Assembly: GCA_030037075.1 (NCBI GenBank)
Contig: JASHRX010000023.1
Coordinates: 4,008-68,007 of the forward strand
DNA length: 64,000 nucleotides
Direction of reading: 5' to 3'
Source: Candidatus Micrarchaeota archaeon
GTDB lineage: Archaea; Micrarchaeota; Micrarchaeia; Micrarchaeales; Micrarchaeaceae
Position 1 is the stretch's first letter. Each line of letters begins with the position of its first letter. A program made the position numbers and the translations under genes. Below are positions 60 through 57,407 of this stretch, piece by piece. The notes under the pieces are model-generated. The model did no database searches and was not told the origin of the DNA. It saw nothing but the letters and a program-made list of their open reading frames with translations.

Positions 60-3000
60 TCAGCCTGGCATGGTGAAGTTGTTGCTCACCCACGTTGGCT
101 TCGTGGTGCGCGGAGGCAACTGGCCCGTATAGTTGTCCAGCGCGTATATCCTTATCGCGTACGTTCCGTTGACATAGTTTATCTCGTCAGTGGAGTTGTT
201 CGGGTATACTTCGTGGAAGCCCGGCAGCTCGCCAAGGAAGAAGCCCCTGTAGTAGCTCGAGTTGTAGAAGAGCGTCGGCGCGTTGGTTATCGTATCGTTA
301 GGGCCGTTCGGCAGGTATATCATGACGTACTCGACAAATTCTATGCCGCTGATGGTGATCACTCCTTCGTAGAAGCTGGATTGTATCACTGCATTGGTCT
401 TGCCTCCTGATTGGTTGTATATCGCGAGGACTCCCTTTGAGTTGGGCACCGAACTGACGCACGCGGTGAAGTTGGCGAGGCTGTCTCCCTGCACCACATA
501 AGATTCTATAAGCGGGACGGTGGAGTTTGATGCGGAGCAGTAATATGATATGCTCTGCTGTATGGATGAGTTGGACGGCACGAGCGCGGCGAGAGGCACC
601 AGCACGAACTCTGGGTCGTGCTCTATCTCGCACTGCGAAGTTCCCAGCGCGTACGTCTGCGGCGGCGTCTCTGCCTGGCCGGCGGCTATCGCGTATGCCC
701 TTGAAGTCTCGTTGACGTCCACGCAGGCAAGGAAGTCCACCGCCTGCCATTTCGCCAACAGGTCCTGGTCGAACAGCACGTACTCTGTCTGGTTCGTGTT
801 CATCATGTTGGCGAGAGTGCTAGGCCCTATCTTGTTCGACTGGCTCAGTACATACTGCGCTGCAGTAGCGTAGTCCTCCGCAGGCTCTGAGTTGTCCCCC
901 CTGAGCACCGCCGGCGCATTGCCAAACCAGTTTATCCAGTCACCGTAGTCCCACCATGCCAGCACCCTTGGGCCGGATACGCCAACGTTGTCGCGTATCC
1001 ATGCCATGGCGTCGAGCCAATAGGCGGGGATCTGGTTGCAGAACATGTCGGCGCCTATGCTGTTGCCGTGGTCCGATATGATGGTGCACGCGTTGGCCGG
1101 GTTTGTGGCGTACGTGAACGCGGCGGTAAATGCGGATGTTATGGAGCTAGACTCTCCGAGCAGCAGGCTGTGGTTCGCGAATACGTTGCCTACGAAGAAG
1201 ATTATGAAGAAGAACAGGACTGCATAGAGGTATGTATTGCCATCCTTCTGCTTCCTCAGGAAGATCAGCAGTATCAGCATTACCATTGCGAGTATCGGAG
1301 ATATGAAGAAGACGCCAAGGGCGAGCAGCGAGTACACGACGCCCTGATGGTTCTTGAAGGCGTTGAGGTACTCGGGCCTCTTCTCGAGCAGGCCTGTCAG
1401 GTTCTTGCTGTATTTCCTTATGCTCAGGTCGTTGTCCGCTATGAGCAGAAGCTCTCCGATCATTATGCAGAACAGCATTATGAAGGCGACGCCGAAGTGC
1501 GGCAGGTACTTCACCTCGGAGAATCCGGCGAACATGAGCGGGCCGGCTATCGCAAGATAGAATATTCCCGAGGTGCTCTTCCTGAAGATTATGCTGATCG
1601 CTATGAGTATTGTAGCTATCCCGGAGATGAGGAGTACGAGTATTGGGACTGTAACAGTGGTGCCGGAAGATTGGTAGCTGATTCCTGCGCCGATCACTCC
1701 GAAGCCTTCAGCCGCGAAGTTGTAGAGCACGCCAGTTGGTATGTACTCCTGCACGGTCATGAAGAGGGCTATGGACGGCGTGGTGTAGTGGGCGCTAAGC
1801 GTTATGTATCCTATGAGAGTGGTCCTTAACGGCGATGCGAAACCCACTATGACGGCCAGCAGCGCGATTATGACGATCCAGCCCGCATACTCCTTCCAGT
1901 TGAGAGACCTGAAGAGCACGTGGTACCTCTTCAATACCTTCGGCCCGTATTCTATTACTGCCACAAGCACCAACGCGAGTATAGGAAGGGCGAGCGTTAC
2001 CGGTATGCCAAGGACTCCTGGTATCTTGCCGCTCAGCGTCGACTTGTATGCGGTGTACGCGGCGAGGAATATGCCTATTACGAAGATCACGATTATGTTC
2101 ATCTTGTAGAAGTACTTGCTGTTCGTGCCCTGCAGGACGCCGATTATTCCCTGCAGCAATATGTAGGCCGCAAGGACCCCTGCGTCGACAGTGTAGTAGT
2201 GCGCACCAAGGAATGTGGATGCGAACGCTATTCCGGCGAGTATTGCAAGCCTCGAGTTCTTCATGTCCCTTACCGCGATGACGTACATCGCGAAGAAGAA
2301 GAAGAGCGTGAATATTCCCCACGGTTCGAGGAGCTGCTCTCCTGCTACAAAGGTGGTGAACAATACGGGCATGCCAGCGGTGAGGGCGGCCCCTATGAGG
2401 GCTACGTACTTGCCGTATTCATGATACAGCAGGACGAAGATGGAGAATACGAGAAGCGCGGCAGTTATCGGCGGGTAGACCGATCCGACATAGCTCATCA
2501 GGTTGGTATTGAACGTGCTGCTGTTCTTTGGACCGAGGTAGTTGGCGAGGCTGTACCAATACGCCTCTATGTAGGGGACTAGGGGCTGGACCCTCATCAC
2601 GGACCCCGCTGTTTCGATAGGCCACGCTGAGTGGGCGGTGTAGAACTGCTGGCCGTACACCAGTATCGATTGGGTGGCCATCATGTCGAAGTACGGGTCG
2701 AACTCGTAGAAGTGAGGTGACACTCCTATTCCGAATGCCCTGGTCGCAAACGTTATCAGTATTATTGCAATTAGCAGCATCCACGGCCAGGCGGTCTTGA
2801 AGTTTATGAAAGGCTTCGGCCCTACCTGCCCTTCAACAGGCCCGCTCAGCCTGTTGAGCATTATCCTCTCCTCCTTCTCGTGCTCCTCTATCAGCTTCCT
2901 CTCTTCCGCCTTGTGCAGCTCGAACATCTTCGCCTTCTCGTCAGAGCTGAGCCCGCCTATCAGGCCCTGCTCGCTCCTGTGCTTCCTCCTCAGGTCGTCC

Positions 3001-3449
3001 TCTTCGCCCTTATGCAGCTCTATGAGAGACCTGGCCGCAGCGAACCCGGAGAGCTTCTTTCGCAGTTCCTCTATCCTTTTCGAGTAATCTGATTCCAAGG
3101 CACCCATCTGCGCCTCCTCCTGCTTTATGTACTGCGGGCGCGTGATGCCCGACAGGCTGAATCCCTTGAAGACGCCCTGCTGGTAGCAGAGTACCACGCC
3201 AACTATAGTGAGTATGAGGGCGTTGAGCTCGAAGAGGCCGAGCGAGAACGCGAATGCATGCGAGTAGCCTATCAGGAACGACTCGATCCATGTGAGAGAT
3301 GCCGGGGCTATGAGCCCGAAGACGAATCCTATTATTGCGATCTCTATTATGTGGAAGTCGGTTCGCTTGTAGAGGAGGGCGAGCGCAAGAAGGACGCCGG
3401 GCACGAACATAGATATGAAGGCGATTATTCCAGCGGCTATTGCACCCAT
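60..3449 (-). CDS. aglB: Archaeal oligosaccharyltransferase AglB/STT3 (1129 aa) with an extra N-terminal module
   Basis: WWDYGDWINWFG (WWDYG motif), EFDPYFD acidic loop after the first core TM, many TM helices followed by a large C-terminal soluble domain. Confidence 0.9.
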   Translation of the reverse strand: MGAIAAGIIAFISMFVPGVLLALALLYKRTDFHIIEIAIIGFVFGLIAPASLTWIESFLIGYSHAFAFSLGLFELNALILTIVGVVLCYQQGVFKGFSLSGITRPQYIKQEEAQMGALESDYSKRIEELRKKLSGFAAARSLIELHKGEEDDLRRKHRSEQGLIGGLSSDEKAKMFELHKAEERKLIEEHEKEERIMLNRLSGPVEGQVGPKPFINFKTAWPWMLLIAIILITFATRAFGIGVSPHFYEFDPYFDMMATQSILVYGQQFYTAHSAWPIETAGSVMRVQPLVPYIEAYWYSLANYLGPKNSSTFNTNLMSYVGSVYPPITAALLVFSIFVLLYHEYGKYVALIGAALTAGMPVLFTTFVAGEQLLEPWGIFTLFFFFAMYVIAVRDMKNSRLAILAGIAFASTFLGAHYYTVDAGVLAAYILLQGIIGVLQGTNSKYFYKMNIIVIFVIGIFLAAYTAYKSTLSGKIPGVLGIPVTLALPILALVLVAVIEYGPKVLKRYHVLFRSLNWKEYAGWIVIIALLAVIVGFASPLRTTLIGYITLSAHYTTPSIALFMTVQEYIPTGVLYNFAAEGFGVIGAGISYQSSGTTVTVPILVLLISGIATILIAISIIFRKSTSGIFYLAIAGPLMFAGFSEVKYLPHFGVAFIMLFCIMIGELLLIADNDLSIRKYSKNLTGLLEKRPEYLNAFKNHQGVVYSLLALGVFFISPILAMVMLILLIFLRKQKDGNTYLYAVLFFFIIFFVGNVFANHSLLLGESSSITSAFTAAFTYATNPANACTIISDHGNSIGADMFCNQIPAYWLDAMAWIRDNVGVSGPRVLAWWDYGDWINWFGNAPAVLRGDNSEPAEDYATAAQYVLSQSNKIGPSTLANMMNTNQTEYVLFDQDLLAKWQAVDFLACVDVNETSRAYAIAAGQAETPPQTYALGTSQCEIEHDPEFVLVPLAALVPSNSSIQQSISYYCSASNSTVPLIESYVVQGDSLANFTACVSSVPNSKGVLAIYNQSGGKTNAVIQSSFYEGVITISGIEFVEYVMIYLPNGPNDTITNAPTLFYNSSYYRGFFLGELPGFHEVYPNNSTDEINYVNGTYAIRIYALDNYTGQLPPRTTKPTWVSNNFTMPG

Positions 3450-3483
3450 CTAACCATTCATTTCGTTTATACCGCAAAGGGTT

Positions 3484-4107
3484 TTAACTATTTAGGATTG
3501 ACTTCGGTATTTCTAGTGGCTTGAGAGTCCTTCCCGGGAAGACAGTTCCCGGCGGCACTATCCTTACCTTCACCCCTATGGCGCCGTACTTTGGATACGA
3601 AGTGGCGTGCGCCTCCCTCACCAGGTTTATAACGTCACCGGCCTTCGGAATGTAACCTATGCTCTTTCTTATCGTCTTTGCTCGTGCGCCTTTAGCGGCG
3701 AGCTTGCCGCTCGCTATTATCTCGGCGCCTATCGCGCCGTTCTGGAGTATATCCTTGAGCGTTGACTGGATTACCCTGCGTGCATTTATGCCACGCTCGA
3801 ACTTCTCGGCGATGTCCCTGGCCACCAGCATCGGCTCGAGCATCTTGTTCTCTACCTCCATGACGTTTATCTGCGGGTTATCCACCTTGAACATCGTCTT
3901 TATGTTTGTCGTGAGCGTGTCTATCGTCTTGCCGGCCCTTCCTATGACCCTGCCTGGGTTGAGCACGTAGACGGTTATCCTGGTGAGCACTGGTGTCTTC
4001 TGTATCTCTACGCGCGAGAACCCTGCACGAACGAGCTCCTTGCCCAAGTATTTCGATATGTTTAGCTTGACAATCGAATCGCTGATGAATTTTCTCTCTA
4101 TGGCCAT
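3484..4107 (-). CDS. rps3: 30S ribosomal protein uS3
   Basis: KH-domain N-terminus (FISDSIVKLNISKYL..., GRVIGRAGKTI) and position after uL22 in the S10-like operon. Confidence 0.9.
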   Translation of the reverse strand: MAIERKFISDSIVKLNISKYLGKELVRAGFSRVEIQKTPVLTRITVYVLNPGRVIGRAGKTIDTLTTNIKTMFKVDNPQINVMEVENKMLEPMLVARDIAEKFERGINARRVIQSTLKDILQNGAIGAEIIASGKLAAKGARAKTIRKSIGYIPKAGDVINLVREAHATSYPKYGAIGVKVRIVPPGTVFPGRTLKPLEIPKSILNS

Positions 4108-4111
4108 TGGA

Positions 4112-4726
4112 TCACGCCTTTACCTTTGCCTTTTCTTCCGCTACCGCCTTCGGCTTTGCCTTGGACTTTTCCTTCTCCTTCACCTGGACTACGCGCTCCC
4201 CTTTCTTCGTCGCCGCAATAGCAGCCTTCATCTTGGCGCTGAGTCCCTCCTCCTCGCCGTAGCCGAGCGCCACTTCAACCCTCGAGAATTCCAGGTCTGT
4301 CCTTCTTACGCTCCTTCTTCCCATGCTGTGGCCGAGCCACAGAGCGCCCTTAGATGCGGTCCTTGGAAGTATCATGGTCTTGTTCGCTGACGCGTGAACC
4401 ACATACATCGAATCCGGGTCCTCCCCCTTGCTCTCTGCGTTCGCCATTGCGTTTGCCAGCACGCCCTTAACTATCCTTGCGCACTTTATCGGATACCTGC
4501 CCTTTCTACCGCCCAGCTCGTGCCTTGATCCCATGTACTTGTTGTGCTTCGAGTACAGCACGGGCATGCTGCCCTCTACGAAAGTGTCGAGCATTGCTAT
4601 TGCGGACCTTACGCTCCTGTACCTTATCGCGTCGCATACCGCGGAGAGGTCCTTGAAGCTCGCGTTGAGGTCCTTCGCCCCTCCGAAGACGAGTCCTTCC
4701 CTCTTCCTGTTGAACGCGTAATTCAT
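4112..4726 (-). CDS. rpl22: 50S ribosomal protein uL22 with a Lys/Ala-rich C-terminal tail
   Basis: Operon position between uS19 and uS3; uL22-like core (KDLSAVCDAIR..., VVHASANKTMILPR). Confidence 0.85.
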   Translation of the reverse strand: MNYAFNRKREGLVFGGAKDLNASFKDLSAVCDAIRYRSVRSAIAMLDTFVEGSMPVLYSKHNKYMGSRHELGGRKGRYPIKCARIVKGVLANAMANAESKGEDPDSMYVVHASANKTMILPRTASKGALWLGHSMGRRSVRRTDLEFSRVEVALGYGEEEGLSAKMKAAIAATKKGERVVQVKEKEKSKAKPKAVAEEKAKVKA

Positions 4727-4730
4727 ATCA

Positions 4731-5123
4731 TCACTTCTCTCCGAGGAACTTACTTCCCCTTGTTGCCTTGATTCCTGGCGCAGAGTGCACGACGCTCTTC
4801 GTGGTGTAAGCGAACTCCCCCAATCTGTGGCCGAGCATGTTAGCGGTAACCTGCACGACCTGGAACTCCTTGCCGTTGTGAACCTCGAACCTTGTGCCTA
4901 TCCACGATGGCAGTATCACCGCCTCGCGTATGTGCGTCTTTATCGGCTTGTCCTTCTTCTCCTTCTTGAACTTCTCCACCTTTGCGGTGAGCTTTCTGTA
5001 TTCAACAGCGTTCCTCTTTATGCTCCTCCTCTGCCTTGACTTCACCATCTTGAGGTACTCCTCATTGGTGAGCTTCTCTGCCTCTGCGGGCATCTTTCCC
5101 TTAAACGCGATTCTGTCTACCAT
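4731..5123 (-). CDS. rps19: 30S ribosomal protein uS19
   Basis: TWIGTRFEVHNGKEFQVVQVTANMLGHRLGEF is the conserved uS19 core. Confidence 0.9.
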   Translation of the reverse strand: MVDRIAFKGKMPAEAEKLTNEEYLKMVKSRQRRSIKRNAVEYRKLTAKVEKFKKEKKDKPIKTHIREAVILPSWIGTRFEVHNGKEFQVVQVTANMLGHRLGEFAYTTKSVVHSAPGIKATRGSKFLGEK

Positions 5124-5124
5124 T

Positions 5125-5838
5125 TTATCCCTTCTTTCGCCTGCCTACCCTTCTCGCGGCTATGTGGCCCACCTTCCTGCCTGGCGGTGCATTCCTCGAT
5201 GTCATGCTGCTCTTGCCCTTGTGGTGCTGCTTGCCTCCGAACGGGTGGTCCACTGGGTTGCTCTTCACTCCTCTTATGACGGGCCACATCCTGTTTGTGG
5301 CGTGCATCATGTAGTGGCTCTTGCCCGCCTTGACGAGCGGCTGCTCTGCCATTCCTCCGCCGGCCACCATGCCGAGCTGCGCCCTGCACTCGTTGCTCAG
5401 GAGGACGCTCGCCTTTGATGGAAGCGTGACGTTAGTGTTTGGGCCCAAGTGCGCGGTGATGTAGGCGGTGCTGCCTGCGCTCCTTACGAGCTTGCCGCCG
5501 TCCCCGGCCGTTGACTCTATATTGTAAACCGGCATGCCCTCTGGTATGTCGCCTATCTTCATCACGCTGCCGAGCGCGAAACTGTTGTTCCCTATGTCAA
5601 CCTTGTCGCCAACCTTTATTCCCTCAGGGGCGAGCATGAAGCTGCTGCTGAAGTCCTCATACTTTACCTCCATCAACGGGGCGGTGTGCCCCGTGTGGTT
5701 GAACACTCTTGAAACCTCGCCTATAAGCTTCGCGTTGACGTTGTGGCTGTAAGCCACCCTTAAGTCGAAGGTGCCGGGCGGCTTCGTGTACGCTTTTGTG
5801 CCCTTTCCTCGCCTCTGTTGTCTTAGTCTCTTTCCCAT
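5125..5838 (-). CDS. rpl2: 50S ribosomal protein uL2
   Basis: GKRLRQQRRGKG N-terminus and the NPVDHPFGG...HKGK C-terminal signature. Confidence 0.95.
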   Translation of the reverse strand: MGKRLRQQRRGKGTKAYTKPPGTFDLRVAYSHNVNAKLIGEVSRVFNHTGHTAPLMEVKYEDFSSSFMLAPEGIKVGDKVDIGNNSFALGSVMKIGDIPEGMPVYNIESTAGDGGKLVRSAGSTAYITAHLGPNTNVTLPSKASVLLSNECRAQLGMVAGGGMAEQPLVKAGKSHYMMHATNRMWPVIRGVKSNPVDHPFGGKQHHKGKSSMTSRNAPPGRKVGHIAARRVGRRKKG

Positions 5839-9508: not shown

Positions 9509-9602
9509 AGCGGGGTAGGGTAGTCTGGAGTGCCCGTCGGGCTCATAACGTTTTTTGCTGTAAGAAACCCGAAGATCGATGGTTCAAATCCATTCCCCGC
9601 TA
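9509..9602 (+). tRNA. Initiator tRNA-Met (CAT) with a ~19-nt intron in the anticodon loop
   Basis: AGCGGGG/CCCCGCT acceptor (A1:U72). The anticodon stem TCGGG/CCCGA has three G:C pairs next to the loop CTCATAA (CAT at 9544-9546). T-arm is GATGG-TTCAAAT-CCATT. An extra 19 nt (about 9548-9566) sits between loop and stem. A T-run follows the gene. Confidence 0.85.
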
Positions 9603-12239: not shown

Positions 12240-13439
12240 ATTGGTGTTTTCGCGAGAAGATACTTCAGTTCTGAGAGCGTAACAGAGGGTCACCCGGACA
12301 AGGTCTGCGACGCGATAAGCGATGCGATATTGGACGCATGCCTCACGCAGGACCCCGAGAGCAGGGTGGCGATCGAGACCCTCGCAACAAGGGACTTCTG
12401 CTGCATAGCCGGAGAAGTGACAACAAAGGCGAACGTTGACTTCGAGAAGGTTGCAAGGCAGAAGATCCGGGAGATAGGATATGATGACCCGGCGCTCGGA
12501 TTCTCTGACAAGTCTGAGATACTAGTCAAAGTGCACAAGCAGAGCCCGGACATATCACAGGGAGTGGACGGCCATGGCGATTATTCAAAGGAGCAGGGTG
12601 CAGGAGACCAAGGACTAATGTTCGGATACGCGAGCAACGAGACCCCGCAGCTCATGCCGCTTCCTATTGCGCTCGCGCATGCGCTTTCAGAGAAGCTCGC
12701 AGAGCTAAGGAAGAACGGCGGGATACCGGAACTGCTTCCTGATGGCAAGTCCCAAGTGACAGTTGAGTACGATGGAAGGATACCAAAGAGGGTCCAGGTT
12801 GTCGTTATATCGGCCCACCACAAGGGCGACTGCAACATGGAGCACCTGAGGGATGAGATACTCGCCAAGGTAATAAGGCCTGTGCTGGGCCACTGGATGG
12901 ATAGCGCCACGCAGGTATACATAAACCCGACGGGCAGGTTTGCGCTGGGGGGTCCAGCCGCGGATACAGGAGTAACGGGCAGGAAGATAATTGTTGACAC
13001 TTATGGGGGCAAGGGAAGGCATGGAGGCGGTGCGTTCTCCGGAAAAGACCCCTCAAAGGTTGACAGGTCTGCCGCGTACATGGCAAGGTACATCGCCAAG
13101 AACGTTGTGGCAGCAGGACTTGCAGATGAGTGTGAAATACAGATATCATACTGCATAGGCTACGCAGACCCGATGAACGTTCATGTGGAATGCTTTGGAA
13201 CAAACAAGGTACCGCAGGAGGTAATCGAGGGTCTGATTCTCAAGAACTTCCAGCTGAAGCCTGCAATGATAATAAAGACATTGCAGCTCAAGCGTCCTAT
13301 ATACTCGAAGACGGTAGCGTATGGGCATTTCGGCAAGGCTGACATGCCATGGGAGCAGACCGACAAGGCAAACGTATTAAGAGAAGAGGCTCGAAATCCA
13401 ACCAAGGAGCTACAGAACCAGCGCACAAAGCGCCAGTAG
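12240..13439 (+). CDS. metK: S-adenosylmethionine synthetase, bacterial/eukaryal MetK type; start codon unclear
   Basis: SESVTEGHPDKVCDAISDAILDA, GAGDQGLMFGYA and GGGAFSGKDPSKVDRSAAY motifs. The conserved N-terminus begins before the ORF-track TTG at 12330. The only in-frame codons after the TAA at 12234 are non-canonical (ATT at 12240). Confidence 0.85.
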   Translation: MGVFARRYFSSESVTEGHPDKVCDAISDAILDACLTQDPESRVAIETLATRDFCCIAGEVTTKANVDFEKVARQKIREIGYDDPALGFSDKSEILVKVHKQSPDISQGVDGHGDYSKEQGAGDQGLMFGYASNETPQLMPLPIALAHALSEKLAELRKNGGIPELLPDGKSQVTVEYDGRIPKRVQVVVISAHHKGDCNMEHLRDEILAKVIRPVLGHWMDSATQVYINPTGRFALGGPAADTGVTGRKIIVDTYGGKGRHGGGAFSGKDPSKVDRSAAYMARYIAKNVVAAGLADECEIQISYCIGYADPMNVHVECFGTNKVPQEVIEGLILKNFQLKPAMIIKTLQLKRPIYSKTVAYGHFGKADMPWEQTDKANVLREEARNPTKELQNQRTKRQ

Positions 13440-13460
13440 TCTAGCGGTCAGGATACCGCC
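13430..13460 (+). pseudogene. Orphan 5' half of a tRNA-Gly-like gene (acceptor 5' strand, D-arm, start of anticodon stem)
   Basis: GCGCCAG-TA-GTCT-AGCGGTCA-GGAT-A-CCGCC parallels the 5' half of the intact tRNA-Gly at 14292. It has the same GCGCCAG acceptor and the same GGATACC. No matching anticodon-stem 3' strand or T-arm follows it. Confidence 0.7.
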
Positions 13461-14291
13461 ATTTTTCCAAGCAAGCAGCGATTTGCACACGAGGTTATAA
13501 ATAATTTAACCGCGCTAAGGAAGCATGGTCGTAGTAAATAAAGAAAAAGCCCAGGAGATAAGTAAGCTGTACTCAGAAGGATGGAGCCTTAATAAACTGG
13601 CAGAAAACTTCTCTATAAGTAAGAGCACAATTTACTACAACGTTAGGAAAAGGTTTGGTTTAAAACACCAAACTTCAAGGTTCAACCTAAGCAATAAGGA
13701 ACTGCTAGGCGAATTCCTGGGACTTTTTGCCGGTGATGGTAATTTTGAATTTGATGCTGCTTATCATTACAGGGTGACTATATTTCTCTCCCCAAAAGAG
13801 CGCAAAATACTCAACAGAACAGTGCACATAATTTCCCAATTGTTCGGTAAGAAACCCTGGGTTTGGTACAATAAACGCGGCAACTGCTATTACGTCAGGG
13901 TATACGGCAAACGGATATTTCTATTGCTGAAGAAGTTTCTAAGCTGGGGTAAAAATAAGACACTTACAATCTCATTTAATGATAACGTTTTCAGAGATCG
14001 TAGGTTAATGAAAGGCATAATCCGGGGCTTGATCAATTCAGATGGTAATATATACGAAGCTAGACTAAGGATTTCATTCGGCAGTATATCAAAAACCATG
14101 ATAGAACAAAGTGAGTCTATGTTGACCATACTATCCGTCCCGCACACTTATTCAACCTCAGCTCCTCATCAGAACCACAAAAGATTTTACACAATAGCAA
14201 TAGAAGGTGAAAAGAAAGTTTTAGAGTTTAACAGCAAAATCGGTTTGATAGACTCAGAGAAACAAGATATTCTGCAAAGTGCATTAAACAT
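13458..14291 (+). mobile_element. AT-rich homing-endonuclease cassette inserted at a tRNA-Gly locus
   Basis: The LAGLIDADG ORF has its own TATA box and is flanked by an imperfect direct duplication of a tRNA-Gly 5' half. G+C is clearly lower than in the flanks by hand count of 60-nt samples (38% vs 52%). Confidence 0.55.
13495..13505 (+). promoter_or_regulatory. TATA box of the LAGLIDADG gene
   Basis: TTATAAATAAT is centred about 25 nt upstream of the ATG at 13525, implying a leaderless or near-leaderless mRNA. Confidence 0.45.
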
Positions 14292-14334
14292 GCGCCAGTC
14301 ATCTAGCCTGGAAGGATACCAGCTTCCCAATTGA
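13525..14334 (+). CDS. Double-motif LAGLIDADG homing endonuclease with an N-terminal helix-turn-helix
   Basis: Motif 1 is FLGLFAGDGNF and motif 2 is IRGLINSDGNI, about 105 aa apart. The N-terminus (EGWSLNKLAENFSISKSTIYYNVRK) is a resolvase/Hin-like HTH. Confidence 0.8.
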   Translation: MVVVNKEKAQEISKLYSEGWSLNKLAENFSISKSTIYYNVRKRFGLKHQTSRFNLSNKELLGEFLGLFAGDGNFEFDAAYHYRVTIFLSPKERKILNRTVHIISQLFGKKPWVWYNKRGNCYYVRVYGKRIFLLLKKFLSWGKNKTLTISFNDNVFRDRRLMKGIIRGLINSDGNIYEARLRISFGSISKTMIEQSESMLTILSVPHTYSTSAPHQNHKRFYTIAIEGEKKVLEFNSKIGLIDSEKQDILQSALNMRQSSSLEGYQLPN

Positions 14335-14377
14335 TAGGAAGCAGCTGGACGCCCGGGTTCAAATCCCGGCTGGCGCA
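14292..14377 (+). tRNA. tRNA-Gly (CCC) with a 13-nt intron at 37/38
   Basis: GCGCCAG/CTGGCGC acceptor, D-arm ATCT-AGCCTGGAA-GGAT, anticodon stem CCAGC/GCTGG, loop TTCCCA|A with CCC at 14326-14328. The intron is 14330-14342, and its GGAA pairs with loop UUCC leaving 3-nt bulges CA|A and GC|A. T-arm is CCGGG-TTCAAAT-CCCGG. Confidence 0.85.
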
Positions 14378-14378
14378 T

Positions 14379-15080
14379 TTAAATAAGGATCAGCACGAGC
14401 ATCCCTATTATTCCTCCTATAAGCCCGCAAGCTAGGTTAGAGGTAAACTTATCGCCCATCCCTCTCTCTTCATAATGGCCGAGGAACGAGTCAACTACTG
14501 TACCGGCAAAGCCCCCGGCCGTGCACCCTAGCAGCGCAAGCACAGCAAGCTGGTAATTTCCCGGCAGTATGTATCCCAGCTTAAAGGCAATGAACGTGAA
14601 TGGAGTGCTTATCAGCATAGCACCGAACAGGCCAGAGGCAAGCCCGAATACTGTTACCCCGCCGGAAGCACCCCTCTTGACAAGCTTGTATGTAAGAATG
14701 TCGTGCGGCGCGCCATTCAGCACGCCCAGCTCGCTGCTGAACTTGTCGGCCGTTATCGCGGCCACGCTCGCGCCGAAACCAGCAAGAGATGCAACAGCCA
14801 GCGCCGCATTCCTTTGCACAAAGATGAAGATGAAGAAAAGGAATGCGAAGATGAGAGGCCCTATCCCATTCGAAAGAACGTTGGTGATTCCTCTAGCCTT
14901 CTGGTATACCCCAAGGCTCTTCTTACGCTCCTTGCCAACAGTCGTTACAGCGGCGGCAAGACCCAAAAAGTAGAGCATGAAGACCAGGAAGATGAGGTTT
15001 AGTCCCCCAAAGAAGAGCATGGCCACTCCCAGAATTGCCGCAAGGGTCAGACCCTTCGCATCGAGAGTAAGGAAGCCCAT
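14379..15080 (-). CDS. DUF92/TMEM19-family integral membrane protein
   Basis: About 7 TM helices and Gly-rich motifs (GASGGVTVFGL, GCTAGGFAGTVVDSFLG). A family call from pattern memory. Confidence 0.5.
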   Translation of the reverse strand: MGFLTLDAKGLTLAAILGVAMLFFGGLNLIFLVFMLYFLGLAAAVTTVGKERKKSLGVYQKARGITNVLSNGIGPLIFAFLFFIFIFVQRNAALAVASLAGFGASVAAITADKFSSELGVLNGAPHDILTYKLVKRGASGGVTVFGLASGLFGAMLISTPFTFIAFKLGYILPGNYQLAVLALLGCTAGGFAGTVVDSFLGHYEERGMGDKFTSNLACGLIGGIIGMLVLILI

Positions 15081-16379: not shown

Positions 16380-17138
16380 ATGCTGTTTTTAGTCGGTACA
16401 GGAATTGCCTACAATGACATATCTATCAGAGCGGCAGAGAGGTGCAAGGGCTGCGATGTATACATCGAGAGGTACACCAGCCTTGTAGACGACGAGAAGG
16501 TAAGGTACCTCTCTGAGCTATTCGGGAAGAAAATAAGCTTCCTTAACAGGGAGGACTTGGAGGAGAAGGCGAAAGAGATAGTCGCAAGGGCCGCAAGCAA
16601 GAACATCGCGATACTTGTCGGTGGAGACCCTCTTACCGCAACGACTCACAAAATCCTTTTCATAGAGGCAAAGAAGCAGTCTGTGGGCGTAGAGGTGCTG
16701 CATTCCAGCTCAGCGATTTCAGCAATAACAGGTGAAAGCGGCCTTGACTTCTACAGGTTTGGGCAGGTGTGCACCATACCAAGATGGTCTGACAGGTACA
16801 AGCCAGTTTCATTCTATGAAACAATAGAAAGGAACCTATCACACAACCTACACTCACTCGTCCTTCTCGACTACTATCCGGAAAAGGGCAGCACTCTCTC
16901 CTTGCACGATGCCGTAAACGAGCTCCTGGCCGCGGAGGAATTCTACAAGAAAGGAATAATAGAAGGTGGCACCAAGGTAATGACGATGCGAAACATAGGG
17001 CTAAGCAACCAAGAGGTAAAAATGACAACTATTGAAGAAGCGAAGGCAGAAGTGGCCTCCGGCATGTTCGCCGTAATATTCCCAGCAAAGCTTTCAGAGG
17101 TAGAGAAAGAGACCATCGATGGAATGACAATGGTGTGA
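16380..17138 (+). CDS. dph5: Diphthine synthase
   Basis: MLFLVGTGI...CDVYIERYTS N-terminus and GDPLTATTH motif of the tetrapyrrole-methylase-fold Dph5. Confidence 0.85.
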   Translation: MLFLVGTGIAYNDISIRAAERCKGCDVYIERYTSLVDDEKVRYLSELFGKKISFLNREDLEEKAKEIVARAASKNIAILVGGDPLTATTHKILFIEAKKQSVGVEVLHSSSAISAITGESGLDFYRFGQVCTIPRWSDRYKPVSFYETIERNLSHNLHSLVLLDYYPEKGSTLSLHDAVNELLAAEEFYKKGIIEGGTKVMTMRNIGLSNQEVKMTTIEEAKAEVASGMFAVIFPAKLSEVEKETIDGMTMV

Positions 17139-18304
17139 GTATCCTCACGATAAACTACGATGCAAAGGAAGGGGCCGTTTACGCGGCAGACCAGTCTACA
17201 GTAGACACGCTCAAGGAGGGCAGCATAGGCACCTACAAGGACGGCAGGCTCTATCTCGAGCCAGAGGAGGCAATGTACCTGATGGACGTCAGGAAAACAG
17301 AGTGCGTCTCTTCTGCAACAGGCGCATCTCTGTCATTCAACGACCTTGCCGAGAAGTACGCAAAGAGCAAGAAGCTAATGGCGAGGTACTTCACGTACAA
17401 AGACTGGAGGGACCGCGGCCTGATAGTGAAGAGTAACGACTTCGAGGCAAAGCAGAATACAAAGACACCAATAAAGAGATACCCCTCATCGAAGCTCAGG
17501 CTCGCAGGGTACAAGCTAACCGGGGTCTTCTTCCCCGAAGACATGACAACCGTAGCCGAGGACTCGCACGACAGCAAGGTCATATACACGGAACTGTGGT
17601 TTGGCCAGTATGGGACGTACAAGCTCGGAGAGCACGGCATACTGAACAAGCTGGATGTCTACGAAACCCTCTACCTTATCGACAACAATGTGCTTACTGT
17701 ATCAAACAGCACCAGGAACGAGGTCTACAACACCGCGTACCAGCGGAGGTCGGATTTCCCAAAGCTCTACCAGGTGTACAGCGACTGGCGCGACAAGGGC
17801 TACGTCGTCAAGACGGGTTTCAAGTTCGGCACGCACTTCAGGATATATTTCCCGGGTGCGAAGCCCATACGCGACGACCCCTCATGGGTGCACTCAAAGC
17901 ACGTAATACACGTATTCCCCAGGGACGTGAAACTGCTCATATCGGAATGGGCGAGGGCAATACGCGTCGCGCACTCCGTCAGGAAGACGTTCATACTCGC
18001 GATACCAGGCAAGAGCCGGAAGAAGAACATGCACATTGACTTCCTGCTATACCACCGAAAGGGCAAGGAAACCGAGAACCCCAAGGAGGACGCGCCGAGG
18101 TACGCAATGCTTTCGCTCAGCGAGGACGAGTATATTGGGGGCAGCGAGCTCTCAGGTGTCATAAACGAGGCCAAGCAGAGGAAGCTTGAGCTGATAATTG
18201 CGATAGCGGACAGGGAGACAGCTGTCACATACTACAAAGTGAGAAGGATAGAGCTGCCAAAGAGCCCATACGAGTACTACGAGATAGACTGGATGCAGCC
18301 CTAG
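17135..18304 (+). CDS. endA: tRNA-splicing endonuclease, single-chain three-unit type
   Basis: A catalytic unit (YSDWRDKGYVVKTGFKFGTHFRIYF...HSKHVIHVF...SVRKTF) lies between an N-terminal EndA-like unit (YKDWRDRGLIVKS, no catalytic triad) and a C-terminal structural unit. At 389 aa it is about twice a homotetramer-type EndA. Confidence 0.8.
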   Translation: MSILTINYDAKEGAVYAADQSTVDTLKEGSIGTYKDGRLYLEPEEAMYLMDVRKTECVSSATGASLSFNDLAEKYAKSKKLMARYFTYKDWRDRGLIVKSNDFEAKQNTKTPIKRYPSSKLRLAGYKLTGVFFPEDMTTVAEDSHDSKVIYTELWFGQYGTYKLGEHGILNKLDVYETLYLIDNNVLTVSNSTRNEVYNTAYQRRSDFPKLYQVYSDWRDKGYVVKTGFKFGTHFRIYFPGAKPIRDDPSWVHSKHVIHVFPRDVKLLISEWARAIRVAHSVRKTFILAIPGKSRKKNMHIDFLLYHRKGKETENPKEDAPRYAMLSLSEDEYIGGSELSGVINEAKQRKLELIIAIADRETAVTYYKVRRIELPKSPYEYYEIDWMQP

Positions 18305-57265: not shown

Positions 57266-57407
57266 GGGGCTGTAGCGTAACTTGGCAGCGCGGCTGGCTC
57301 CAGATGTTTATAATTCGGTGAGCGGGAAACCGCGATGATGAGGATCTGGAAATACAATTAAAGCATGAAGTAACCAGCAAATCCGGGTTCAAATCCCGGC
57401 GGCCCCA
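57266..57407 (+). tRNA. tRNA-Trp (CCA) with a 69-nt intron at 37/38
   Basis: GGGGCTG/CGGCCCC acceptor, D-arm GCGT-AACTTGGC-AGCGC, anticodon stem GCTGG/CCAGC, loop CTCCAG|..|A with CCA at 57300-57302, T-arm CCGGG-TTCAAAT-CCCGG. The intron is 57304-57372 and contains ATGATGA at 57335-57341. Confidence 0.85.

Follow-up and report, generated by a model that had tools for sequence, protein, structure and literature searches.

A LAGLIDADG homing-endonuclease gene and a replacement 5' exon at a tRNA-Gly(CCC) locus of a Micrarchaeota archaeon

In a stretch of 64,000 nucleotides from a Candidatus Micrarchaeota archaeon (assembly GCA_030037075.1, contig JASHRX010000023.1, positions 4,008 to 68,007, forward strand; "the window"), a LAGLIDADG homing-endonuclease gene lies between an orphan 5' piece of a tRNA-Gly(CCC) gene, which overlaps the end of metK, and a complete tRNA-Gly(CCC) gene. 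We consider it likely that a free-standing endonuclease cassette invaded the resident tRNA-Gly(CCC) gene downstream of metK. The orphan piece comes from the resident gene and the inserted DNA is foreign; close relatives have an empty site, and the rebuilt tRNA has a complete structure. The cassette (about 13470-14342) is made up of an antisense T-arm relic, a TATA box, a gene for a protein with a helix-turn-helix (HTH) domain and a LAGLIDADG core, a second 5' exon (nucleotides (nt) 1-37 of the tRNA), and a 13-nt intron with a bulge-helix-bulge (BHB) splice motif. It is flanked by the resident 5' exon, which is decaying and still supplies the stop codon of metK, and by the 3' exon. The intron that the cassette carries is probably protective.

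The tRNA-Gly(CCC) locus in the window and in relatives

The orphan overlaps the end of the S-adenosylmethionine synthetase gene metK (12246-13439, + strand), whose homologues in other genomes are 77-84% identical and share its synteny. A first-pass annotation, made from the sequence alone, had described a tRNA 5' half here that shares the last codons and the stop of metK, and we find it just there: positions 13430-13460 read GCGCCAG-TA-GTCT-AGCGGTCA-GGAT-A-CCGCC, which gives an acceptor strand, a D arm, and the anticodon-stem strand CCGCC. The end of metK falls within nt 1-10 of the orphan, with G13430 as the third base of a Lys codon, followed by CGC, CAG, and TAG (13437-13439). With Rfam, no 3' partner was found downstream of the orphan, even at E ≤ 10. 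The match of the orphan to a covariance model of tRNA-Gly(CCC) is weak and partial (10.4 bits, E = 0.04 in 1.2 kb), so we identify it by its synteny and by its identity to relatives. Its 15-mer GCGCCAGTAGTCTAG is unique within the window (0.01 expected), and it agrees with the complete copy in the window at 22 of 28 nt (z = 4.5-4.8 against shuffles).

Compared over 26 nt, the orphan matches the orphan of a relative (L049; loci in other genomes have L numbers) at 24 positions, the intact alleles of L131, L132, and L055 at 23, and the copy inside the window's endonuclease gene at 21. The pieces are too short for such a comparison to be firm, and the cassette-borne 5' exon itself matches L055 at 24/27. 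Because the orphan resembles the relatives' alleles, and because it lies exactly where their tRNA sits, overlapping the metK stop, we take it to be the front part of the resident gene. When metagenomes were searched for exact matches to an intact tRNA with the D arm and anticodon stem of the orphan, there were none.

The orphan is well preserved up to nt 31 (13460). The short decayed stretch after 13460 (ATTTTTCCAAG) is plausibly the former anticodon loop, and the remnant probably continues to about nt 38, with 13461-13469 (ATTTTTCCA) as the decayed loop; we therefore annotate the orphan 5' exon as 13430-13469 (+ strand). This bears on where the cassette entered. The first-pass annotation placed a homing or integration event in the anticodon-stem region. 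We agree that there was an insertion, but the canonical intron site (nt 37/38-40) is a more likely insertion point than the anticodon stem at nt 28, since the orphan seems to run through the decayed anticodon loop and since the duplicated piece at locus L064 is exactly nt 1-37.

The complete tRNA-Gly(CCC) gene (14292-14377, + strand) scores 47.4 bits with Rfam and 77.3 bits with a tRNA-Gly(CCC) model that we built, and ARAGORN calls it if introns are allowed. In its default mode, ARAGORN missed it. The replacement 5' exon, corresponding to tRNA nt 1-37, occupies 14292-14329, inside the endonuclease open reading frame (ORF), and was delimited by the tRNA calls and by alignment with the orphans and the empty-site alleles. 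It is followed by a 13-nt intron at the canonical position 37/38 (ATTGATAGGAAGC, 14330-14342; ARAGORN i(40,13)), which is an addition to the earlier description, and then by the 3' exon (14343-14377), which the tRNA models resolve into the 3' strand of the anticodon stem, the variable loop, the T arm, and the acceptor strand. The intron forms a BHB motif with a UUCC/GGAA helix and CAA and GCA bulges. The anticodon stem of the complete tRNA is CCAGC/GCUGG, and it differs on both strands from that of the orphan (CCGCC). The intron has no counterpart in the empty sites of L052, L055, and L131. So, the earlier suggestion that the element brought its own replacement 5' half is correct but incomplete: the cassette brought more than that, as shown by the intron and by the changes on both strands of the anticodon stem.

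To see what the locus looks like without the insert, we chose relatives by the similarity of MetK (77-84% identical); these are from metagenome-assembled genomes that are labelled as Marsarchaeota. They share the gene order PAC2-metK-[tRNA-Gly(CCC)]-DUF92 (reversed)-RadA. The synteny is fixed on the right by the DUF92 membrane-protein gene (14379-15080, - strand, in the window), which directly follows the tRNA in L049, L052, L055, and L132. The first-pass annotation had proposed looking for an empty site, in which metK runs straight into tRNA-Gly(CCC), and three relatives have one, each with an intron-less tRNA. In L055 (MetK 78% identical), the metK stop is tRNA nt 8-10; in L131 (77%), it is nt 5-7; and in L052 (81%), the tRNA starts 5 nt past the metK stop. 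L132 (78%) has an 11-nt intron at 37/38 without the endonuclease gene. In L049-L051 (84%), which are three independent assemblies, the same site holds a different LAGLIDADG gene: metK ends in an orphan (tRNA nt 1-26), followed by a TATA box, a 331-amino-acid LAGLIDADG ORF, and a complete intron-less tRNA-Gly(CCC). The L049 protein is 30% identical to the window's over 118 amino acids, and its match to LAGLIDADG_3 is weak (25.9 bits). A different LAGLIDADG gene with its own orphan at this site points to independent invasions by two endonuclease lineages. The site is thus polymorphic: it is empty in L052, L055, and L131, has only an intron in L132, and is occupied in the window and, by the other lineage, in L049.

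Three further features of these relatives are worth recording. In L132 (2664-2747), the tRNA with the 11-nt intron has neither an endonuclease gene nor an orphan beside it, which is the state expected after loss of the endonuclease or after conversion by the intron alone. In L049, the closest relative (4678-5783; also L050 and L051), the frame in which the ORF enters the tRNA differs from that in the window. And L131 has a 357-amino-acid ORF (2800-3873, - strand) between tRNA-Gly(CCC) and DUF92 that has no Pfam match and is not a LAGLIDADG gene, so that this tRNA has a further variable insert beside it.

The stop codon of metK lies inside the tRNA-Gly(CCC) gene even at empty sites (4640-4661 in L055 and 2670-2682 in L131; compare 13430-13439 in the window). 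There is no space left in which the tRNA could have a promoter of its own, so it is probably processed out of the metK transcript. In that case, RNase P would also remove the stop codon of metK. The first-pass annotation had noted that cleavage by RNase P at 14291/14292 would remove the stop codon of the endonuclease ORF, and it proposed that expression of the endonuclease was thereby coupled inversely to processing of the tRNA. The geometry is as described. However, the metK stop is equally inside intact tRNAs at empty sites, so a stop codon within the tRNA is not evidence for dedicated control; a coupling is conceivable, but it would not be peculiar to the endonuclease.

The endonuclease and its family at archaeal tRNA genes

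The insert is about 0.87 kb long, and within it the stretch 13461-14291 has a G+C content of 38.0%, versus 53.8% for metK and 52.2% for the window. The free-standing endonuclease gene (13525-14334, + strand) encodes 269 amino acids, with an N-terminal HTH and a two-motif LAGLIDADG core; at 37.8% G+C, it is 14 points below the host. A TATA box (TTATAAAT, 13495-13502, + strand) lies about 23 nt upstream of its ATG, and A/T-rich boxes at a comparable distance are also found in L001, L007, L009, and L012. This AT-rich ORF, with its TATA box and both domains, had been recognized in the first-pass annotation, and Pfam bears it out: LAGLIDADG_3 matches at 46.6 bits (cut-off 22.5), and the resolvase-type domain HTH_7 matches the N-terminus at 30.3 bits (cut-off 23.8). 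Motif 1 is LGEFLGLFAGDG (with D71) and motif 2 is IIRGLINSDG (with D173). In an alignment with 7 homologues, the catalytic pairs D71/G72 and D173/G174 are unchanged. No second copy of the gene was found within the window.

A relationship to I-DmoI and similar enzymes, which had been put forward for checking, is supported by both sequence and structure. Comparing the family profile to the sequences in PDB gave the endonuclease of the TliVMA intein (E = 8e-13) and PI-PfuI (8e-10). The AlphaFold2 model of the 269-amino-acid protein has a mean predicted local distance difference test score (pLDDT) of 87.1 and a predicted template-modelling score (pTM) of 0.75. With this model, Foldseek found the endonuclease domain of the TliVMA intein (7qsu, E = 1e-10), I-DmoI (template-modelling (TM) score of 0.72-0.76 on the target), and I-Tsp061I (0.70); structures of WhiA (8dy7 and 3hyj) were also among the matches. 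The model thus has the pseudo-symmetric, two-domain alpha-beta-beta-alpha-beta-beta-alpha fold of monomeric LAGLIDADG enzymes. Confidence in the model is low for the C-terminal residues that are encoded by the tRNA, which fits a read-through tail.

As had been proposed, the end of the ORF overlaps the first 43 nt of the tRNA gene: the final 14 codons reach into the tRNA, and the TGA (14332-14334) lies inside its intron. Homologues stop at a UGA formed by tRNA nt 8-10. The window's tRNA has a C at nt 9, so the long overlap is a read-through that arose because G9 became C.

Just 5' of the TATA box is a decayed antisense T-arm relic (GATTTGCACACGAGG, 13480-13494, - strand), which we identified by eye. 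It has counterparts in related cassettes and is well preserved in L011 (24.7 bits, minus strand), L010, L043, and L094. An antisense T arm, often with an acceptor strand (nt 73 to 49), precedes the TATA box of the endonuclease directly in cassettes of both orientations (see below); the sites are 13480-13494 in the window (minus-strand sense), 4015-4091 in L011, 3373-3398 in L010, and the upstream regions of L094, L043, L073, and L077. In cassettes of the sense class, this relic cannot derive from the current insertion, which suggests that a module of antisense T arm, TATA box, and endonuclease gene predates the sense arrangement.

Homologues of the endonuclease (33-50% identity) are found directly 5' of tRNA-Gly(CCC) in unrelated neighbourhoods, such as a mechanosensitive-channel gene followed by L18e/L13/S9, or PAC2 without metK, and they stop at tRNA nt 8-10. 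By scanning one genome per species as well as metagenomes, we collected 107 further loci. Their hosts are mostly Woese-, Nano-, Parv-, Micr-, and Aenigmarchaeota and Thaumarchaeota. Among the 95 loci with a complete ORF, 53 have a tRNA that is called by ARAGORN at the 3' end of the ORF (29 sense and 24 antisense, where antisense means that the end of the ORF abuts the 3' end of the tRNA), although these counts were not de-replicated between the collections. Judging by how densely other tRNAs occur in these loci, such adjacency would be expected in about 2%. A further 36 of the 95 have a T-loop motif at this position, with calls that are individually weak, and six have neither a tRNA nor the motif. 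About 10 of the T-loop-motif loci were read by eye and turned out to have antisense tRNA-Gly genes that are rich in introns. Among the partners are tRNAs for Gly (CCC, UCC, and GCC), Leu, Met, Ala, Val, His, Arg, Cys, Asn, Glu, and Pro. When we searched exhaustively with a profile and clustered the matches at 50% identity, there were 160 clusters at E ≤ 1e-30 and 1,253 at E ≤ 1e-10. The source databases label the members as "hypothetical protein" or "homing endonuclease." We found no family members on viral contigs.

At several loci where the insertion looks recent, a direct repeat on either side of the endonuclease gene corresponds to exactly one tRNA exon. In L064, the repeat is identical at 37/37 positions and is exactly nt 1-37 of tRNA-Gly(CCC); it ends where the 17-nt intron of the downstream copy starts, and upstream of its first copy, the resident tRNA promoter is still present and looks intact. 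In the antisense class, it is the 3' end of the tRNA that is repeated. For instance, the repeat in L094 (22/22) corresponds to nt 54-73 and two trailer bases. The orphan there reaches as far as nt 49, with no intron in its T stem. In the functional copy, a 28-nt intron lies at 53/54; the boundary of the repeat (about nt 49-54) is beside this T-loop intron. Other direct repeats are in L023 (18/18), L092 (19/19), L043 (26/27), and L030 (20/21). In L061 (666-1654), two pieces of the resident tRNA-Gly(CCC), nt 1-38 and nt 49-73, have acceptor strands that are complementary to each other, and the insert between them is a complete foreign tRNA-Gly(CCC) with a convergent endonuclease gene; here a whole tRNA was carried and not one exon. 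The tRNA-Gly(CCC) covariance model recovers the orphan fragments of L064 (35.9 bits), L011 (24.7), L061 (19.2 and 18.8), and L007 (13.7). Among distinct sense-class tRNA-Gly(CCC) loci of the window's family, 10 of 11 have an intron at 37/38, versus none of the three empty sites.

A thaumarchaeal locus, L013 (3259-3529, the same as L068 1159-1429), has an endonuclease gene that is followed by just the first part of a tRNA-Gly(CCC) (nt 1-41). On the opposite strand, 187 nt beyond this, there is an intact tRNA-Gly(CCC) without an intron. The locus is a rearranged or abortive copy. We also considered an origin at the RNA level, given the recurring junction in which tRNA nt 1 is the third base of a codon and the stop is at nt 8-10. 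We dropped this idea because other members end 7-40 nt before the tRNA, and because U8-R9-R10 yields the shortest tail in that frame.

The window has other tRNA genes with introns. tRNA-Arg(CCU) (57266-57407) has an unusually long intron of about 70 nt, which leaves no room for an endonuclease and could be the remnant of a larger insert. The intron of tRNA-Met(CAT) differs among the relatives: it is 19-21 nt in the window (9509-9602), 12 nt in L052 (797-883) and L055 (798-884), and absent from L049 (824-898). From such comparisons of sequences, gain and loss of introns seem to be frequent in the clade of the window genome and its relatives.

Proposed mechanism and alternative explanations

We propose that the enzyme would recognize the uninterrupted anticodon-arm region of an intron-less tRNA-Gly(CCC) gene and cut near nt 37-40. 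Repair from an occupied allele would then copy three things at once, namely the endonuclease gene, the replacement exon, and the intron, so that the host would keep a working tRNA. Exon replacement would play the part that splicing of RNA or protein plays for endonucleases that are borne by introns or inteins. The occupied allele would be immune because its recognition site would be broken in two ways, by the truncation of the orphan and by the intron. RNase P and the host's tRNA-splicing endonuclease would release the mature tRNA from the transcript of the homing-endonuclease gene. The gene for the splicing enzyme, which is required for excising the 13-nt intron, lies 2.8 kb downstream of tRNA-Gly(CCC) (17135-18304, + strand, 389 amino acids; Pfam tRNA_int_endo, 113.5 bits). 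Later, recombination between the exon copies may delete the endonuclease gene and leave an intron-containing tRNA, as in L132.

The splicing endonuclease itself has two catalytic-domain matches plus N-terminal domains, which makes it a fused multi-unit form. In this it recalls the broad-specificity enzymes that have been reported from ultrasmall archaea (PMC3239211).

Several observations do not sit easily with this proposal. The recognition site, the cut position, and the immunity of the occupied allele are steps that we infer. The window's orphan has decayed, and where it ends on the right is uncertain (nt 28 to 39), so the insertion in the window is not a recent one, and its enzyme may no longer be active. 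With the nearest homologue of the endonuclease only about 50% identical, there is no known donor. The intron is not obligatory, as L014 and L049 lack it. The orphans of L049 and L007 stop at nt 26 instead of nt 37, and members of the tRNA-Arg(GCG) subfamily (L010, L073, and L077) have an upstream fragment that fails to match the tRNA next to the gene. The simple model has no place for the antisense T-arm relic of sense-class cassettes. Also, the redundancy between collections and the weak T-loop calls mentioned above make the family-wide counts less compelling.

Some of these observations would be expected if the insertion happened as we describe but is by now an old, fixed, and inactive relic, whose endonuclease no longer homes and is decaying. 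The orphan matches the complete copy at just 22/28 positions and its loop has decayed, the change of G9 to C has lengthened the ORF, and there is the distance to the nearest homologue. Yet the ORF is full-length with all of the conserved residues, its G+C content is still 14 points under the host's, and the locus is polymorphic among close relatives. The first-pass annotation had said that a degenerate ORF, missing catalytic residues, a lack of empty sites, or a full tRNA from the upstream half would speak against its reading of the locus as a homing or integration event. We found that the ORF is intact, that the catalytic residues are invariant, that empty sites exist, and that the upstream half does not give a full tRNA. 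We consider an inactive relic to be rather unlikely, though it is an explanation to be taken seriously.

The position of the cassette also brings to mind a giant mobile intron. The endonuclease gene would then lie in a BHB intron of about 0.87 kb at nt 37/38, with the orphan as the functional 5' exon and the internal copy as an alternative exon. The cassette is at the canonical intron position, and the archaeal enzymes I-DmoI and I-Tsp061I are encoded by introns. Also, the two 5' exon copies of L064 are identical (37/37) and the promoter of the first looks intact, so either copy could pair with the 3' end of the intron. But when we scanned for a BHB between the window's orphan and the 3' splice region, with the 13-nt intron as a positive control, the best candidates had 5/8 flanking pairs, and none was in register. 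The orphan has a decayed anticodon loop, and its stem strand, CCGCC, is mismatched to GCUGG. L001, L009, and L012 have no orphans. Finally, a complete tRNA with a short canonical intron lies downstream, and the ORF has its own TATA box. All of this makes a giant intron quite improbable in the window, although it may apply to fresh cases such as L064.

We give still less credence to two explanations that do not involve homing. If the insert were the remnant of an integrative element of the integrase type (like SSV or pNOB8), this would account for the att-like topology, in which a direct repeat of a tRNA end flanks the insert and the tRNA is restored from the element's copy; this reading was applied to the tRNA-Thr locus of Caldiarchaeum (PMC3293823). 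However, the 0.87-kb insert has a single ORF, in which Pfam finds only LAGLIDADG_3 and the HTH and no recombinase domain, either tyrosine or serine. The one-gene layout recurs at about 90 loci, no family member was found on viral contigs, and we think that such an element is very improbable. We judge it just as improbable that the protein is a domesticated, WhiA-like HTH-LAGLIDADG DNA-binding protein that regulates or serves the adjacent tRNA, so that the adjacency is functional and the gene is not mobile. The protein does have an HTH and a LAGLIDADG core, WhiA folds (8dy7 and 3hyj) are among the structural matches, and the ORFs are intact in most loci. But WhiA has lost the catalytic aspartates, and here both are invariant. 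Furthermore, the gene is present or absent among close relatives, it has a foreign composition and is accompanied by stranded tRNA pieces, and the family adjoins many different tRNAs in either orientation.

Known systems and the significance of the family

A close parallel to the strategy of a homing cassette with a replacement exon is in the mitochondria of fungi, where mORFs form gene hybrids (atp6 of Allomyces macrogynus; atp6, atp9, cox2, and nad3 of Glomus; PMC3630166). As in our locus, the endonuclease ORF is free-standing and moves together with a second copy of one end of the gene that it invades; this copy becomes joined to the resident gene, and the displaced native end stays beside the insert. 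In the mORF hybrids, the displaced native end is closer to relatives than the carried copy is (PMC3630166). The mORFs affect mitochondrial protein genes and replace the 3' (C-terminal) end. In contrast, the window has a tRNA gene on an archaeal chromosome (genes for RadA, PAC2, and the tRNA-splicing endonuclease are nearby), the replaced part is the 5' exon (for the antisense class, the 3' exon), a BHB intron is included, and the enzyme is of the HTH-LAGLIDADG_3 type.

The architecture at the tRNA has been described once. In tRNA-Thr(GGU) of Caldiarchaeum subterraneum (Sugahara et al. 2012, PMC3293823), a 5' fragment (nt 1-27) is followed by an insert and by a complete tRNA with an insert-derived 5' part and a new intron at 24/25. 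The insert includes an 813-bp ORF immediately upstream of the tRNA and on the same strand, its dinucleotide composition is foreign, and an empty allele exists in the same population; the authors proposed that the intron was gained from the element and protects the site (PMC3293823). The window shares the orphan 5' fragment, the insert with an ORF, and the complete tRNA with a new intron. It differs in that the Caldiarchaeum insert is 1.9 kb long and has a repeated 545-bp region. The Caldiarchaeum ORF was called a putative DNA recombinase, on the basis of a machine-learning prediction, and the event was modelled as the attP x attB integration of a pNOB8-like plasmid (PMC3293823). The window's ORF is demonstrably a LAGLIDADG endonuclease, so a double-strand break and homing is the natural mechanism here, unlike in that model. 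Our protein search for family members gave no match that was named as Caldiarchaeum.

SSV1 and pNOB8 elements (as described in PMC3293823) also have tRNA genes as targets, but the window's insert is under 1 kb with one gene and no tyrosine recombinase, and the repeat is bounded by the intron site. I-DmoI, I-Tsp061I, PI-PfuI, and the TliVMA intein share the fold and the catalytic motifs of the window's enzyme and are its best matches in sequence and structure. Unlike these enzymes, which are embedded in introns or inteins, the window's enzyme has a (predicted) promoter of its own and an extra N-terminal HTH, and its gene sits beside the targeted gene. In intron-less or collaborative homing (seg and mob of phage T4; F-CphI with the psbA intron; PMC3984707), the endonuclease gene is likewise outside of the interrupted gene. 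There, as we presume for the window, the target is the intron-insertion site of intron-less alleles, and a neighbouring intron would break the site and protect the donor. Those systems are from phages, with group I introns and enzymes of the GIY-YIG, HNH, and Endo VII types, and no exon is duplicated, whereas the window has a protein-spliced BHB intron and an exon copy. In short, endonuclease ORFs that carry a replacement gene end are known from mORFs, the tRNA architecture from Caldiarchaeum, and the targeting of intron sites from phages. A literature search found no paper that links LAGLIDADG genes to archaeal tRNA genes, with subscription journals outside of its coverage. The family-wide pattern at archaeal tRNA genes merits a dedicated study.

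More tentatively, the window may have one member of a widespread and so far unrecognized family of HTH-LAGLIDADG cassettes that are specialized on archaeal tRNA genes and are made harmless by a replacement exon and a short BHB intron, without depending on their own splicing. If so, then cycles of invasion and of loss of the endonuclease gene, by recombination between the exon copies, might be a general source of new tRNA introns, at both canonical and non-canonical positions, of stranded tRNA halves, and perhaps of split tRNA genes in DPANN, Thaumarchaeota, and related archaea. The tRNA-Thr gene of Caldiarchaeum might be another instance. This broader view is possible, but we hold it with much less confidence than the invasion of the window's tRNA gene.

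Homing endonucleases are thought to persist in essential genes by means of self-splicing introns, inteins, or intergenic positions. Here, an endonuclease gene interrupts a tRNA gene and mends the damage with a spare exon, and a short protein-spliced intron probably blocks recutting. With something like a hundred natural LAGLIDADG enzymes, each with a probable target that can be read from the tRNA gene beside it, the family would be useful for the discovery of enzymes. The origin of archaeal tRNA introns and of orphan halves has been debated for years, mostly with integrase-type elements in mind. If the steps that we propose are true, then they provide a concrete route, at the level of DNA, to the gain of tRNA introns and to orphan halves in archaea, and the layout of these cassettes may explain the origin of some archaeal tRNA introns and orphan tRNA pieces.

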